From Escherichia coli (lineage in GTDB: Bacteria > Pseudomonadota > Gammaproteobacteria > Enterobacterales > Enterobacteriaceae): a stretch of DNA of 64,000 bases. The stretch lies in NCBI RefSeq assembly GCF_003334815.1, contig NZ_QOWO01000006.1, one strand, 5' to 3'. Positions 1-59,813 of the stretch are shown here, piece after piece; within the stretch, counting starts at the first letter, position 1; every line of letters starts with the position of its first letter. The notes under the pieces were generated by a model, which was given only the letters and a program-made list of their open reading frames with translations, did no database searches and had not been told where the DNA came from. The position numbers and the translations under genes are program-made.

Positions 1-236
1 CCGACAGCACCCGTTCGCAGGGCAACATGGCCGTAACTTATAAGCCGCTGTCTGACAGCGACTGGCAGGAACTGGGCGCGAGCGATCCAGGCCTGGCATC
101 CGGTGACTATAAACTGCAGGTTGGCGATTTAGATAACCGCAGCAGCCTACAGTTCATCGATCCGAAAGGTCATACTCTGACTCAGAGTCAGAACGACGCG
201 CTGGTAGCTGTCTTCCAGGCTGCGTTTAGCAAGTAA
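1..236 (+). CDS. bamC: Outer-membrane lipoprotein BamC (NlpB), C-terminal part; 5' end lies outside the window
   Basis: Open frame runs from the window edge to a TAA at 234-236; ORF track 27..236 is the in-frame tail; position immediately upstream of purC matches the dapA-bamC-purC arrangement. Confidence 0.75.
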
Positions 237-243
237 AAATACA

Positions 244-270
244 GGGCTGGAATCATCCGGCCCTTTTTTC
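244..270 (+). terminator. Rho-independent terminator downstream of bamC
   Basis: Stem GGGCTGG / CCGGCCC (one G-U wobble), loop AATCATC, followed by TTTTTT at 265-270. Confidence 0.6.
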
Positions 271-279
271 TGATATGAT

Positions 280-295
280 ACGCAAACGTGTGCGT
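280..295. promoter_or_regulatory. PurR operator-like palindrome in the purC upstream/leader region
   Basis: ACGCAAACGTGTGCGT is a near-perfect 16-bp palindrome resembling the PurR box; purC is a PurR regulon member. Confidence 0.55.
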
Positions 296-340
296 CTGCA
301 GGAAAACGCGATTTTAGCGGTAATTCGCACGAAATTTGTT

Positions 341-395
<55 letters not shown>

Positions 396-448
396 CACCA
401 GACAGCAAAAGATTTTAAAACGTTAATTCACACCCAGGAGTGATAAAG

Positions 449-1162
449 ATGCAAAAGCAAGCTGAGTTGTATCGTGGTAAAGCGAAAACCGTATACAGCA
501 CGGAAAACCCGGACCTGTTGGTGCTCGAATTCCGCAATGATACGTCAGCAGGGGATGGCGCGCGCATTGAGCAGTTTGATCGCAAAGGTATGGTGAACAA
601 CAAGTTCAACTACTTCATTATGAGCAAACTGGCTGAAGCGGGTATCCCGACTCAAATGGAGCGTCTGCTCTCCGATACCGAATGTCTGGTGAAAAAGCTG
701 GATATGGTGCCGGTTGAGTGTGTCGTGCGTAACCGTGCTGCTGGCTCTCTGGTGAAACGTCTTGGAATCGAAGAAGGTATTGAGCTGAACCCGCCGCTGT
801 TCGATCTGTTCCTGAAAAACGACGCCATGCACGATCCGATGGTCAACGAATCTTACTGCGAAACCTTTGGCTGGGTGAGCAAAGAGAACCTGGCGCGTAT
901 GAAAGAGCTGACCTACAAAGCGAACGACGTGCTGAAAAAACTGTTCGATGATGCTGGTCTGATTCTGGTCGACTTCAAGCTGGAATTTGGTCTGTACAAA
1001 GGCGAAGTGGTACTGGGTGATGAGTTCTCCCCGGACGGTAGCCGCCTGTGGGACAAAGAAACGCTGGAGAAAATGGACAAAGACCGTTTCCGCCAGAGCC
1101 TCGGTGGCCTGATCGAAGCCTATGAAGCCGTCGCCCGCCGCCTGGGTGTACAGCTGGACTGA
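449..1162 (+). CDS. purC: Phosphoribosylaminoimidazole-succinocarboxamide synthase (SAICAR synthetase)
   Basis: ORF track 440..1162; start trimmed to ATG 449 ([16 protein letters not shown]...) behind AGGAG; 237 aa as expected for PurC. Confidence 0.95.
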
Positions 1163-7358: not shown

Positions 7359-10300
7359 TTATTCCGGGCGCGGCTTCAGCGGGAAGCGGCGGCGCACCAG
7401 CACAAAGAACAGCGGCACGAAGTAAATAGCCAGAATAGTGGCCGAAATCATCCCGCCCATTACGCCAGTACCCACCGCATGCTGACCACCGGAACCGGCA
7501 CCCGTGCTGGTTGCCATTGGCAATACGCCGAAGATAAATGCCAGCGAGGTCATCAGAATCGGGCGTAAACGCTGACGGCAGGCGTGGAGCGTCGCTTCAA
7601 ACAGGTCGTGGCCTTTTTGGTTCATCTCGTTAGCAAACTCGACGATCAGGATGGCGTTTTTCGCCGATAAACCAATGACCGTTAACAGGCCCACCTGGAA
7701 GTAAACGTCGTTTTCCAGCCCGCGCATCCAGGTTGCCAGCAGCGCGCCGATTACCCCCAGCGGCACGACCAGCATTACCGAGAACGGCACCGACCAGCTT
7801 TCATACAACGCAGCCAGACACAGGAATACCACCAGCAAGGAAATGGCGTACAGCGCCGGAGCCTGCGCGCCGGAAAGCCGCTCCTGATACGACATCGCCG
7901 TCCACTCCAGACCAAAGCCGTTTGGCAGCTGCTTCACTAACGATTCCATAATATCCATCGCCGTACCGGTACTGACCCCCGGTGCGGCTTCCCCAACAAT
8001 CTCAACCGCAGAATAACCGTTATAGCGTTCCAGACGCGGCGAGCCTGTTTCCCAGCGTGAGGTCGCGAAAGCAGAGAAGGGCACCATGCCGCCATCTTTA
8101 TTTCGGACATACCAGAGATTGATGTCATCTGGCAGCATGCGATACGGCGCAGCTGCCTGCACATAGACTTTCTTCACGCGACCGCGATCCATAAAGTCAT
8201 TCACATAGCTCGAACCCCAGGCGGTTTGCAGTGTGTCGTTAATATCGTCGATAGCAACGCCCAGCGCCTGAGCTTTACGCTGGTCGATATCAATCTGCAA
8301 CTGCGGACTGTCGTCGAGGCCGTTATGGCGCACACGGGTTAGCTCCGGGTTTTCCGCCGCCAGCGCCAGCAACTGATTACGTGCTGCCATCAGCGCATCG
8401 TGACCCGCTCCAGCGTGGTCCTGCAACTCCATATCAAAACCTGCAGAACTACCAAGACCGCTAATTGCTGGCGGGCTGCTGGCGATAACGCGAGCTTCTT
8501 TAATTTGGTTAAACGCCTTCGTTGCACGCTCGATAATGGCAAACGAGGTGCCGGTCTTACTGTCGCGTTCGCTCCAGTCTTTCAGGCGGATAAACATTCG
8601 CGCCACGTTTTGCCCGTTACCCCCAGGGCCAGAACCAACGGTGGCAAACACCGACATGATGTTGTCTTTTTCATGGGTGAAGTAGTATTTCTCGATTTGC
8701 TCAACGACTTTCAGGGTCTGTTGTTGCGTTGAACCGCTGGGCAACTGTACCGAGGTAGTAAACATGCCACGGTCTTCCAGCGGTAAGAACGACGTCGGCA
8801 AACGCAGGAACAGGAACACCATGCCGCCAAGCAGCAGGACATAAATCACAATCCAGCGCAGGCTACGGTGGAGAATTTTCGCCACCCCTTTTTCGTAGCG
8901 TTCGGCGTTGCGGTTAAACATCTGGTTAAACCAGGCAAAAAAGCCTTTTTGCCCATGATGCTCACCTTTTTTCAGTGGCTTAAGTAGTGTGGCACACAGA
9001 GCCGGAGTGAGGATCATCGCTACCAGTACTGACAGCACCATCGCCGCAACAATGGTAATAGAGAACTGGCGATAGATGGCACCGGTGGTGCCGCCGAAGA
9101 AGGCCATTGGTACAAATACCGCCGAAAGAACCATCGCAATCCCGACCAGTGCCCCCTGGATCTGCCCCATCGATTTACGTGTGGCTTCGCGAGGAGTGAG
9201 TCCTTCCTCACTCATAATACGTTCGACGTTTTCCACCACCACGATGGCGTCATCCACCAGCAGACCGATCGCCAGCACCATCGCGAACATGGTTAAGGTG
9301 TTGACGCTGTAACCGAAGGCGTAAAGTACGGAGAAGGTTCCCATCAACACCACCGGCACGGCGATAGTGGGTATCAGCGTGGCGCGGAAGTTTTGCAGGA
9401 ACAGATACATAACGAGGAAAACCAGAGCGATAGCTTCCAGCAGCGTTTTCACCACGTCTTCAATGGAGGCTTTAACAAACGAGGTGGTTTCATACGCCAC
9501 CTTGTATTCCAGTCCATGCGGGAAATACTGCGCCAGCTCGTCGAGACGATTGAGCACCAGCTCCGCTGTCGCCATTTCGTTAGCGCCGGAGGCCAGTTTT
9601 ACCCCCAGCCCGGAGGCTGGCTTACCATTGAAGCGGCTAAGATAATCGTATTTCTCCGCCCCCATTTCGACGGTGGCGACATCGCCCAGCCTTACCTCTG
9701 AGCCGTCCTGATTGACCCGCAAGGTGATATCGCGGAACTGTTCTGGTGTTTGCAGCAGTGACTGGGCGTTAATGGTGGCGTTGAGCGCCTGCTTATCGAC
9801 GGAAGGTGTACCACCAAGTTGCCCAACCGCAATCTGCGCGTTCTGTGACTCAATGGCATCAGTGACATCTTTAGCCGTCATCTGGAAACTGTTGAGTTTC
9901 GCCGGGTCCAGCCAGATACGCATGGAATATTGCGAACCATAGGCATCGATATCCCCGACGCCATTCACGCGGCTTAACGGGTCCTGAATATTACTGGCAA
10001 CATAATCAGCAATATCCTGTTTATCCATCGAACCATCGGTAGAGACGAAGGCAATGGTCAGAATGTTGGTATCGCCGGTTTTACGCACCGTCACGCCCTG
10101 ATTTTGCACCGCCTGCGGTAACTTTCGCATGGCTGATTGCAGCTGGTTTTGTACTTGCTGCACGGCTTCGTCCGGATCGGTGCCTGCTTTAAAACTTAAA
10201 GTGACAGATGCCTGACCGGTGCCACTGCTCTGAGATGACATATACATGAGATTATCGAGGCCGGTCATATTTTGCTCGATAACCTGGGTCACGGTGTTTT

Positions 10301-10472
10301 CCAGCGTCTGGGCCGATGCGCCGGGATAGTTAGCGGTCACTCGCACATTCGGTGGCGCGAGATCGGGGTATTGTTCAACGGGCAATGAAAAAATCGCCAG
10401 GGTACCTGTCAGACACAACAGGATTGCCAGCACCCAGGCAAAAATGGGGCGATCAATAAAGAAATTCGCCAT
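7359..10472 (-). CDS. acrD: RND-family aminoglycoside/multidrug efflux pump
   Basis: 1037-aa ORF with 12-TM RND architecture ([19 protein letters not shown]...). Confidence 0.95.
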
Positions 10473-10542
10473 TAAAAGAGGACCTCGTGTTTCTGCGTAT
10501 CGTTGTAGGCTTGACTTGCTTCACTGTAGCGGCAAGGTACGA

Positions 10543-10560
10543 GCCAATCGTGGAGAAAAA
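10543..10560 (-). promoter_or_regulatory. BaeR box-like site upstream of acrD
   Basis: Minus-strand sequence TTTTTCTCCACGATTGGC, about 70 bp upstream of the acrD start, resembles the BaeR consensus as I recall it (TTTTTCTCCATDATTGGC). Confidence 0.55.
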
Positions 10561-10635
10561 AAGGAGTTAATGTAAATTATCATGCCCTTTTATACTGAAC
10601 CTTAAGTGCAAGTATTCTTTGGTCAGTAGGAGGCA

Positions 10636-12336
10636 TTACATTAACTGACTTTCCTCACCCTCCGCAGAGCGAAAGCTAATACTCACTAACGTGCCGCCGC
10701 CGGAAGGTTGTGAAAAAGTCAGCGTCCCACCTAGCCGTTCCGCGCGTTCGCGCATGATATTCAGACCATAATGACCTTCGGGTTCTTTCGGTTCACCGAT
10801 ACCAATCCCGTTATCACGGATATAAACCGTGTGATTGCCGTCCGGCGCGGTGACGCAACTGACGGCGATTTCGCTGGCGTTGGCGTGCTTCATCGCATTC
10901 AGCACCGCTTCGCGAATAATTTGCAACAAATGCACCTGCATTTGCGCATCCAGTGCCAGGGTTGGCAGACGGCAGTCGAGGGTCAGTTTGGCGCTGGTTT
11001 GATTTTGTAACGTATCCAGCATTTCCCTCAATGCGGAGGGGAGATCCGCCTGCTGCAGCGTCAGGCGGAAAGTAGTCAACAGCTCGCGTAACTGCCGATA
11101 AGCATCATTCAACGCCTGGGAAAAATCGGCCATGATACTTTGTGCGGTGGCGTTATCTTCCGGTATCGAACGCTTCAGTAACGTCAACTGGATACGTAAG
11201 TAAGAAAGTACCTGAGCCAGCGAGTCGTGCAATTCGCGGGCGATGGTCGCACGTTCTTCCATCAACAATAATTGCTGAAAATGCTTCTGCGCCTGATTAA
11301 AGTACAAACCGCGTCCCAGCATCGACGAAACGCTGTTAAGCAGCGGTTCTGATGATGAAACGTGACTATTTTGCCAGTGCAGTTCGCCGTAAACCGTCTC
11401 TTGCATTGTCACCGGTAAAATCTGCATCGGCAATTCCGGGTTTGGTTGCCCTTCGCTAATCCGCCAGTTTTCACCGACATTTAACTCCAGATATTCAGCC
11501 GCTTCATTGTCGCGAACAATCTGCAAAATATGGCGGAAACAATGCACATCAATCTGGCTAGTGTTCAGCGCCTGCGAACACTGATACAACACCTCCAGAC
11601 GACGCTTGGCCTCGTGGAGATCGCGGGTCTTTTCTTCTACTGACGCTTCCAGCGAACGGTACAATTTATGCAGCTCGCTCGACATCTGGTTAAAGGTTTT
11701 TGCAAGCAGACCAAGCTCATTCGGCAGGTTGGTATCCAGCGGCGGCGAGTCGAACTGCCCGTGTTCAATACGCTGACTGGCGGTAACCAGCTGATTCAGC
11801 GGGGCAACCACCTGATGGCGTATGCGGCGCAAAGTAAAAAAGACCAGCGTGAAAATACCGATGCCGCCAGCCAGGGAAATCGCCACCACCAGCAGCATTT
11901 TGCGTTCAGCGTAGTGCTGTAAAGCCAGTACGAACAGGTCTATCTGATTAACATAATTATTAATATTGGCCTGATACCACGGCAAATCGCCCTTGCTGAG
12001 CCGATTATTCATCTCCAGCCAGTTGGCATTCAGATGCGCATAGCGAGTTTTTACTGCTTCTGGCACATACCAGACGTTGAGGTTGGTTAATACCGGTGAA
12101 TGCAGTGCCTGCTGAAATAACTGGCGATGTGCATTGAGTTGTGGACTGCCACTTTGCAAGTCGTAGCCCAGGCGGTAACTCTGCATACGCAGCGATCCGG
12201 CAATATTGATAGCCTCAGCGTCGCGCAAACTGCTCGCCAGAGTTAGCAGAGCGATACCCGTGGAAAGAATCGACAGCAGCACAATGTAAAAAAAGGCCCG
12301 GGCCAGACTGGCCGAGACGGGTCGTTTAACAATCAC
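10636..12336 (-). CDS. narQ: Nitrate/nitrite sensor histidine kinase
   Basis: ORF track 10636..12360 (574 aa); the 566-aa form I recall for NarQ would start at the GTG at 12336 (MIVKRPVSASLARAFF...); the upstream ATG at 12360 is an alternative. Confidence 0.85.
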   Translation of the reverse strand: MIVKRPVSASLARAFFYIVLLSILSTGIALLTLASSLRDAEAINIAGSLRMQSYRLGYDLQSGSPQLNAHRQLFQQALHSPVLTNLNVWYVPEAVKTRYAHLNANWLEMNNRLSKGDLPWYQANINNYVNQIDLFVLALQHYAERKMLLVVAISLAGGIGIFTLVFFTLRRIRHQVVAPLNQLVTASQRIEHGQFDSPPLDTNLPNELGLLAKTFNQMSSELHKLYRSLEASVEEKTRDLHEAKRRLEVLYQCSQALNTSQIDVHCFRHILQIVRDNEAAEYLELNVGENWRISEGQPNPELPMQILPVTMQETVYGELHWQNSHVSSSEPLLNSVSSMLGRGLYFNQAQKHFQQLLLMEERATIARELHDSLAQVLSYLRIQLTLLKRSIPEDNATAQSIMADFSQALNDAYRQLRELLTTFRLTLQQADLPSALREMLDTLQNQTSAKLTLDCRLPTLALDAQMQVHLLQIIREAVLNAMKHANASEIAVSCVTAPDGNHTVYIRDNGIGIGEPKEPEGHYGLNIMRERAERLGGTLTFSQPSGGGTLVSISFRSAEGEESQLM

Positions 12337-31185: not shown

Positions 31186-32585
31186 ACACTCGCCAGCTAT
31201 TGAGCGTCGGTATCGATATCGGCACCACCACCACCCAGGTGATTTTCTCCCGGCTGGAGCTGGTTAACCGTGCGGCGGTGTCGCAGGTGCCGCGCTACGA
31301 ATTCATTAAACGCGAAATTAGCTGGCAAAGTCCGGTGTTCTTTACCCCTGTCGATAAACAGGGCGGTTTAAAAGAAGCGGAACTGAAAACCTTAATACTC
31401 GAGCAATATCATGCTGCGGGTATTGAGCCGGAAAGCGTTGATTCTGGTGCCATCATCATCACCGGTGAAAGCGCGAAAACCCGCAATGCTCGCCCGGCGG
31501 TGATGGCGCTCTCTCAGTCGCTGGGCGATTTTGTCGTTGCCAGCGCCGGGCCGCACCTCGAATCCGTGATCGCCGGTCACGGAGCCGGGGCACAAACCCT
31601 TTCTGAACAACGGCTGTGTCGGGTACTGAATATCGACATCGGCGGTGGCACCGCGAACTACGCCCTGTTCGATGCCGGAAAAATCAGCGGCACTGCCTGC
31701 CTCAACGTCGGTGGTCGCCTGCTGGAAACCGACAGCCACGGGCGCGTGGTTTACGCTCATAAACCGGGGCAGATGATTGTGGATGAGTGCTTCGGTGCAG
31801 GCACCGACGCCCGTTCGCTGACCGGCGCGCAGCTGGTGCAGGTGACCCGGCGGATGGCAGAACTGATTGTCGAAGTGATTGACGGAACGCTCTCACCGCT
31901 CGCGCAGGCATTGATGCAAACCGGTTTGCTGCCCGCAGGTGTTACGCCCGAAATCATTACGCTTTCTGGCGGCGTGGGCGAATGTTATCGCCACCAGCCC
32001 GCCGACCCGTTCTGTTTTGCCGATATTGGCCCGCTGCTGGCAACTGCGCTGCATGACCATCCGCGCCTGCGTGAGATGAACGTACAGTTTCCGGCGCAAA
32101 CCGTGCGCGCCACGGTGATTGGCGCGGGCGCGCATACCCTTTCGCTCTCTGGCAGCACAATCTGGCTTGAGGGCGTACAACTGCCGCTGCGCAATTTGCC
32201 GGTGGCGATCCCGATTGATGAAACGGATCTGGTGGGGGCCTGGCAACAGGCGCTGATTCAGCTGGATCTTGATCCCAAAACTGACGCGTACGTGCTGGCG
32301 CTTCCCGCCTCGCTGCCTGTGCGTTACGCCGCGGTACTGACGGTCATCAACGCGTTGGTCGATTTCGTCGCGCGTTTTCCGAATCCGCATCCCCTGCTGG
32401 TGGTGGCCGGGCAGGACTTTGGTAAAGCTCTGGGCATGTTGTTGCGCCCACAGCTACAACAACTCCCGTTGGCAGTCATTGACGAAGTGATTGTCCGCGC
32501 GGGGGACTATATCGACATTGGTACGCCTCTTTTTGGCGGATCGGTTGTGCCGGTGACGGTGAAATCACTCGCATTTCCTTCCTGA
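31182..32585 (+). CDS. eutA: Ethanolamine ammonia-lyase reactivating factor
   Basis: 467-aa ORF; ATGA overlap with eutH. Confidence 0.92.
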   Translation: MNTRQLLSVGIDIGTTTTQVIFSRLELVNRAAVSQVPRYEFIKREISWQSPVFFTPVDKQGGLKEAELKTLILEQYHAAGIEPESVDSGAIIITGESAKTRNARPAVMALSQSLGDFVVASAGPHLESVIAGHGAGAQTLSEQRLCRVLNIDIGGGTANYALFDAGKISGTACLNVGGRLLETDSHGRVVYAHKPGQMIVDECFGAGTDARSLTGAQLVQVTRRMAELIVEVIDGTLSPLAQALMQTGLLPAGVTPEIITLSGGVGECYRHQPADPFCFADIGPLLATALHDHPRLREMNVQFPAQTVRATVIGAGAHTLSLSGSTIWLEGVQLPLRNLPVAIPIDETDLVGAWQQALIQLDLDPKTDAYVLALPASLPVRYAAVLTVINALVDFVARFPNPHPLLVVAGQDFGKALGMLLRPQLQQLPLAVIDEVIVRAGDYIDIGTPLFGGSVVPVTVKSLAFPS

Positions 32586-59051: not shown

Positions 59052-59813
59052 TTACCGCCACATCGCGTGTTTATCGCGATAGCAATCGACCCACATCGCC
59101 GTCGCGCCACAAACGGCAACGGGCATGATGAACAGATTAAGCAGCGGGATCATCGTAAACAGGCTGGTTAAAGCACCAAACTGCATATTGGTGATTTTGC
59201 GTGTGCGCAGGGCGGTGCGCATCTCTTTAAACGGCACTTTGTGGTTATCGAAGGGGTAATCGCAATACTGGATGGCTAACATCCAGGCGCTAAACAGGAA
59301 CCACAGTACCGGCGCGACGGTTTGCCCAATACCAGGGATGAAGTAAAGAATTAGTAATACAATTGCGCGCGGCAGATACCAGGCAAATTTTTGCCATTCG
59401 CGTTTCATGATTCGCGGCACATCTTTCATGATACCGAAAATCCCGGTATCTGGCGGTGTAGCGCCAGTCAATCGTGCTTCCAGTTGTTCAGCCAATAAAC
59501 CGTTAAACGGAGCGGCAATCCAGTTAGCAATCGTGGAGAAGAAATAGCCAAACACTAACAGCACAGAGATGACAGCCAGAGGCCACAACAGATAACTCAG
59601 CCATTGTAGCCAGTCCGGAACGTAACTCATGAGAGTCGGGATCCAGACATCGAGCTGTGTAAAGAGCCACCAGAATGCGCCCCCCATCAACAAAATATTG
59701 ACCAGCAGCGGTAAAATAACGAAACGCCGAATCCCAGGTTGCGAGACGAGCTTCCAGCCTTGCGCAAAATAGTAAAAACCGCTGCGTGGGGCAGATGTGA
59801 ATGATGAAACCAT
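59052..59813 (-). CDS. cysZ: Sulfate transporter CysZ
   Basis: 253-aa membrane ORF. Confidence 0.93.

Follow-up and report, generated by a model that had tools for sequence, protein, structure and literature searches.

The gene acrD encodes an efflux permease that exports aminoglycosides and other drugs. The question raised by this locus is whether an 18-nucleotide motif upstream of acrD on the minus strand is an operator of the regulator BaeR and, if it is, what an intact operator says about induction of the pump by envelope stress. We followed up the motif in a window of 64,000 nucleotides from Escherichia coli (the whole stretch of DNA analysed; contig NZ_QOWO01000006.1), by comparison with other E. 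coli genomes, with acrD promoters across the Enterobacterales and with the published work on BaeR. The motif is the published BaeR site of acrD, already known and ordinary for E. coli. What the comparison adds is a modest refinement of the footprint: the conserved operator is TCTCC-N6-TCTCCACGWTT, 20 nt from the predicted -10 element, and not the K-12 18-mer.

The acrD–narQ locus and its 18-nucleotide box

The acrD coding sequence occupies 7359..10472 on the minus strand and encodes a full-length RND efflux permease of 1037 amino acids; the annotation in every matching E. coli genome is acrD. Its Shine-Dalgarno sequence, GAGG (10483..10486, minus strand), lies 10 nt before the ATG, and ACGAGGTC is kept in the Enterobacteriaceae loci. 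The gene upstream, narQ, is on the same strand (10636..12336, minus). A terminator scan of 10400..10720 found no terminator-like site between the two genes; with no terminator-like hairpin in the gap from the narQ stop to acrD (10473..10635), read-through from narQ could add basal acrD transcription. An Rfam scan of 10300..10800, at E-values up to 1, returned no RNA family.

The narQ–acrD intergenic region is 100% identical to that of E. coli K-12 MG1655 and is therefore the reference acrD promoter, which bears out the earlier note's description of the site as intact. About 43 kb of the window (its first part) aligns to MG1655 at 99.9–99.98% identity, descending from 2,598,066. The cryptic prophage CPZ-55 (6.8 kb), which splits the K-12 eut operon between eutB and eutA, is absent from the window; at the junction (~32563..32585) two MG1655 alignment blocks overlap by 23 bases.

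The 18-mer ‘BaeR box’, TTTTTCTCCACGATTGGC, was found exactly as the earlier note had read it, on the minus strand at 10543..10560, and 70 nt separate its 3' end (10543) from the acrD ATG (10472), in agreement with the distance of about 70 bp first given. The BaeR consensus given in the earlier note proved to be the published one, TTTTTCTCCATDATTGGC. Three later papers give it in identical form, and two of these, PMC3915751 and PMC3799227, credit it to Nishino et al. 2005 or to the published E. coli motif. The box agrees with this consensus at 17/18 positions, the sole mismatch being a C for the consensus T at position 11. With one mismatch allowed at most, the window holds no match other than the acrD box, and 100 dinucleotide-preserving shuffles of its 64 kb yielded none at all; at three mismatches or fewer, 0.20 matches would be expected per window.

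The claimed match to the consensus thus holds at a level that shuffled sequence did not reach, with the qualifications that it is not perfect and that it is partly circular, because the acrD box itself seems to underlie the consensus. We located the K-12 mdtA box (TTTTTCTCCCTTATTGGC) and the K-12 spy box (TTTTTCTCCATAATTGGC, 1825764-1825781) in MG1655. The mdtA, spy and acrD boxes share 15/18 positions in all three, and majority rule over them yields exactly TTTTTCTCCATDATTGGC, down to the D at position 12. From this reconstruction, the acrD box of K-12 therefore appears to be one of three founding sequences of the consensus. Where the consensus has T and D, the acrD box has CG, which explains its one mismatch. 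Given the partial circularity, evidence independent of the consensus was sought in a cross-species comparison.

Conservation and anatomy of the acrD promoter module

For the comparison, one genome per species was scanned with the first 300 amino acids of AcrD, giving 80 loci in which each match runs from residue 1. The loci span Escherichia, Citrobacter, Salmonella, Klebsiella and Enterobacter through to Erwinia, Pantoea, Yersinia and Serratia. They share a common module, comprising GATAATTTACA, the direct repeat TCTCC-N6-TCTCCACGWTT, a gap of exactly 20 nt and a -10-like TAnAGT; its consensus is gaTaATTTACA.TaTCTcCTt..TTTCTCCACG.TTg, followed by a variable stretch and gcTA.AGTga. All 80 loci carry a core within two mismatches of TCTCCACG, and in 72 of them TCTCCA[CT][GTA] is exact; the base after the CG of the core is A or T in near-equal numbers in the other species. 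The five distal bases (-11..-7) read TCTCC in 61 loci and TCTTC in 16 (77/80 together).

In 80/80 loci the interval from TCTCCACG to a downstream TA...T hexamer is exactly 20 nt, the hexamer being TACAGT (35 loci), TAAAGT (22), TAGAGT (15), TACATT (7) or TAACAT (1). This spacing is fixed although the distance to the ATG is not. Counted from the first base of TCTCCACG, the ATG is 81–88 nt away in the 62 short-leader loci, which are essentially Enterobacteriaceae, and 106–300 nt away in the remaining 18, for the most part from Erwiniaceae, Yersinia and Serratia, so that a range of 81–300 nt downstream accompanies a constant interval between core and hexamer.

Over the 80 loci, the mean information is 1.84 bits for the TCTCCACG core, 1.77 bits for the TCTCC 11 bp upstream of it, 1.65 bits for the -10-like hexamer and 1.57 bits for the GATAATTTACA block. 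The spacer from repeat to -10 carries 0.55 bits, the final GGC of the 18-mer, which is not conserved, 0.37 bits, and the far upstream flank 0.16 bits. In the 16 Erwiniaceae, Yersinia and Serratia loci, identity to the window is 96% in the core and 25–35% in the flanks. Conservation of this kind shows the box core to be under strong selection. For other species, the direct repeat is the motif to scan with; the last three bases of the 18-mer vary freely.

The earlier note had suggested a scan with a BaeR position weight matrix as a check. We trained matrices on the non-Escherichia loci only, and with these the acrD site has the highest score of the window, at 32.2 against 9.0 for the runner-up with the two-repeat matrix and at 54.7 against -3.4 with the full-module matrix; the margin over the runner-up is wide once the matrix takes in the distal repeat. 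A second box-like match, TTCTTCTCCACGATTGCT (59526..59543, minus strand), agrees with the acrD box at 15/18 positions. It sits within a 253-amino-acid open reading frame (59052..59813), which we take to be CysZ from its sequence and the K-12 gene order. We rejected it as a BaeR site, since it lies inside a reading frame, has neither a distal repeat nor the upstream block, and reaches 9.0 with the two-repeat matrix against 32.2 at acrD; it looks like a chance match.

Within E. coli, the 301-bp acrD promoter region was found in 5,425/5,426 complete genomes, and six strains sampled over the 97.7–100% identity range were aligned. The box and its immediate surroundings are invariant in the window, MG1655 and the six sampled strains. 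With one exception, substitutions in the six strains are confined to the end of narQ and the initial part of the spacer. The exception, carried by one strain ~30 nt downstream of the box, is the only substitution in the module between TTTACA and the ATG. An intact acrD promoter module is what would be expected for E. coli. In E. coli DETEC-E480 (NZ_CP116181.1), foreign DNA with a thermonuclease-family pseudogene replaces the narQ-side intergenic DNA (~155..400 of the locus); it stops ~22 bp upstream of the 18-mer, and the module from TTTACA onward is retained.

In the window, the operator reads as the direct repeat ACTCC-N6-TCTCC with an 11-bp period, which fits the spacing expected of a dimer of the OmpR/PhoB family. 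The proximal half-site, TCTCCACGATT, is the conserved core (10546..10556, minus strand) and would lie at about -40 to -30 from the predicted transcription start, while the distal half-site, ACTCC (10563..10567, minus strand; TCTCC in most species), begins 11 bp before the proximal one on the upstream side, outside the 18-mer. The 18-mer is therefore best described as a composite, made up of the T-rich stretch between the repeats, the proximal repeat itself and the -35 region in its E. coli form. Functionally, the unit is longer than the 18-mer and shifted relative to it: the distal repeat upstream belongs to it, and the GGC at the 3' end of the 18-mer shows no conservation. We also considered TTTACA as a third BaeR repeat and did not adopt it: its distance from the distal repeat is 9 bp in place of 11 bp, and in phase it matches TCTCCAC at 3/7 positions.

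At position 10567, where the distal repeat begins, the window, MG1655 and the six sampled E. coli strains all carry A, hence ACTCC; 79/80 species-representative loci, that of E. albertii included, carry T. The T-to-A change at 10567 looks like a derived operator change specific to E. coli, judging from this distribution, and is one of the points that count against the BaeR reading.

The predicted -10 hexamer, TACAGT (10523..10528, minus strand), is identified by its conservation 20 nt after TCTCCACG. A recognisable -35 hexamer is absent; if TACAGT is the -10, the -35 position would read ACGATT. A simple sigma-70 scan of 10400..10720 found no promoter, which is what a promoter in need of an activator would be expected to give. 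A literature search (acrD, transcription start site, BaeR) found no experimental acrD start site, so the -10, the start and a class II geometry are predictions drawn from conservation. With TACAGT as the -10, transcription would start at ~10516 ± 2, giving a 5' UTR of ~44 nt, and the repeats would extend from about -51 to -30, with their centre near -41. The best reading of this arrangement is that the acrD promoter is activator-dependent.

Probable direct control of acrD by BaeR, and alternative explanations

The earlier note's statement that acrD is induced through the BaeSR system agrees with both expression and reporter data. In MG1655 under 5% ethanol, baeR knockout lowers acrD by a log2 of -2.91 (p = 2e-39) in RNA-seq, and without stress the change is -0.20 and not significant (PMC7657598 Data Set S5). 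An acrD promoter-lux fusion responded to indole only when BaeS and BaeR were supplied (PMC4780735). The box thus stands in the promoter region of a gene that is BaeR-dependent in MG1655, where the promoter is identical. According to Bury-Moné et al. (PMC2731931), the binding sites of BaeR reported for E. coli number only four, upstream of spy, mdt-bae, acrD and ycaC. In E. amylovora, a gel shift with purified BaeR was performed on an acrD upstream fragment bearing the orthologous TCTTCACGATT / TTCTTCACGATTACTGGC (PMC3915751).

A ChIP-exo study of MG1655 in 5% ethanol stands apart from these results, as no BaeR peak was called upstream of acrD and the authors describe the regulation as indirect (PMC7657598). 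We give this negative limited weight because the two spy peaks of the same study (1825677-1825711 and 1825823-1825843) flank the spy box (1825764-1825781) and do not cover it, and because acrD was BaeR-dependent in the same experiment. The missing peak is nevertheless the main reason why our confidence is not higher. With this reservation, the motif is very probably the operator already known for BaeR at the acrD promoter.

One alternative is that the module is genuinely regulatory and BaeR acts on acrD only indirectly, the repeats being occupied in vivo by another factor such as CpxR or a different OmpR-family regulator with a BaeR-dependent level. Besides the absence of a peak despite BaeR-dependent expression, the drop of acrD in a cpxR knockout under stress (log2 -1.87; PMC7657598 Data Set S5) and the only partial reduction of the acrD promoter response by BaeS H250A (PMC4780735) would fit it. 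The TCTCC repeat and a near-identical 18-mer, however, occur at mdtA and spy, both BaeR-dependent under stress like acrD, where the ChIP-exo study did call BaeR peaks (PMC7657598). The repeats themselves are unlike the GTAAA-N5-GTAAA of CpxR, the effect of CpxR on acrD is strictly BaeR-dependent, and acrD is among the reported BaeR binding sites (PMC2731931). We therefore consider indirect action unlikely.

A smaller share still falls to the view that the 18-mer is mainly core promoter, an UP-like T-tract and a -35-like TTGGCT, conserved as promoter sequence and not as a regulator site. TTGGCT agrees with TTGACA at 4/6 positions and the spacing of the module to the -10-like hexamer is rigid, yet TTGGC is precisely the part that is not conserved (0.37 bits over GGC), and conservation falls on TCTCCACGWTT and on another TCTCC located 11 bp further upstream. 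The gap between TTGGCT and TACAGT, at 13 nt, is too short for a -35 role, and acrD expression needs both stress and BaeR, which together make this explanation very improbable. That the motif is a functionless chance match has almost nothing left in its favour. Partial matches do arise by chance, as the 15/18 match in coding sequence at 59526..59543 shows, but shuffles produced no match at one mismatch or fewer, and the core recurs in 80/80 orthologous promoters at a fixed spacing to the -10. We regard the chance reading as already refuted by these comparative data.

Under the preferred reading, that BaeR acts directly at this operator, envelope stress (indole, copper, zinc, tungstate or ethanol) would activate the kinase BaeS and lead to phosphorylation of BaeR. 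A dimer of this OmpR/PhoB-family protein would then bind head-to-tail on the two repeats, replacing the missing -35 element and recruiting RNA polymerase, and transcription would begin ~44 nt upstream of the acrD ATG. CpxR, acting just upstream, would boost the effect of BaeR and could not substitute for it. For the window, this means that the cis-acting half of the envelope-stress induction of acrD is intact. The earlier note had gone further, concluding that the pump remains stress-inducible in this strain; the cis site alone is insufficient for that conclusion, because baeSR is also needed. By K-12 coordinates (mdtA at 2,154,016), baeSR is expected ~420–430 kb from acrD, outside the window.

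In the literature, BaeR is the primary regulator of acrD and CpxR an enhancer whose effect is strictly BaeR-dependent (PMC2731931 among the sources). The CpxR site listed for acrD in Table S1 of PMC9600279, GTATAAAAGGGCATG, is present in the window (10581..10595, minus strand). Read from 10595 to 10581, it is a weak match to GTAAA-N5-GTAAA and is poorly conserved, at 0.46 bits over the 80 loci. Directly upstream of the BaeR repeats lies the conserved block GATAATTTACA (10571..10581, minus strand), which adjoins the published CpxR site with one base in common. The block is conserved nearly as strongly as the repeats (the 16 loci from Erwiniaceae, Yersinia and Serratia share 82% identity with the window there), and its plus strand reads GTAAA, one perfect CpxR half-site. 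It is conceivable, though on balance we doubt it, that two things hold jointly: that GATAATTTACA is a real co-activator site, used by CpxR through the GTAAA or by an undescribed third factor, with the listed CpxR site secondary, and that A10567 weakens BaeR occupancy, which would explain the absent ChIP-exo peak.

Comparison with related operators

A second BaeR consensus, that of Yamamoto et al. 2008, is quoted as TCTNCANAA in PMC3799227, and the acrD sequence TCTCCACGA agrees with it at 8/9 positions. The difference is at the ninth-position pair, which is GA in acrD and AA in the Yamamoto consensus. The Yamamoto consensus corresponds to the proximal repeat and hence to the conserved core of the 80-locus footprint.

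The predicted geometry at acrD resembles that of other operators of the same regulator family. OmpR/PhoB-family regulators typically bind head-to-tail beside or over the -35 element, and the Pho box and other OmpR-family class II promoters have 11-bp direct repeats, no usable -35 and a fixed distance to the -10, an arrangement also predicted for acrD. With starts predicted at about -51 and about -40, the acrD repeats would be displaced upstream by one repeat relative to pho boxes, and the half-site TCTCCA is unrelated to the pho box CTGTCAT. Two efflux-pump regulators of other organisms, which have been likened to BaeR in the literature, use sites of a similar kind: the DzrR footprint is CGGTTCTCCATCATATCTCCATATT (PMC10052836), and the AdeR repeat is AAGTGTGGAG-A-AAGTGTGGAG, with CTCCACACTT as its reading on the opposite strand (PMC10253819). 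As at acrD, CTCCA(C/T) recurs in direct orientation with an 11-bp period in front of RND pump genes. The two copies fit well in the AdeR and DzrR operators; at acrD the distal one is shorter, with TCTCC and then a T-tract.

The mdtA and spy promoters of K-12 are built in the same manner as that of acrD, with a TCTCC-type proximal repeat, an extra CTCC repeat upstream and a -10-like hexamer 18–20 nt downstream. The hexamer is TATCAT, 18 nt after the repeat, at mdtA and TACACT, 20 nt after the repeat, at spy, the latter matching the acrD spacing. The distance to the upstream repeat differs among the three, being 11 bp at acrD, 10 bp at mdtA and 22 bp at spy. At the MG1655 spy promoter (745..782 of locus L003), a start set by TACACT would fall ~110 nt upstream of the spy ATG.
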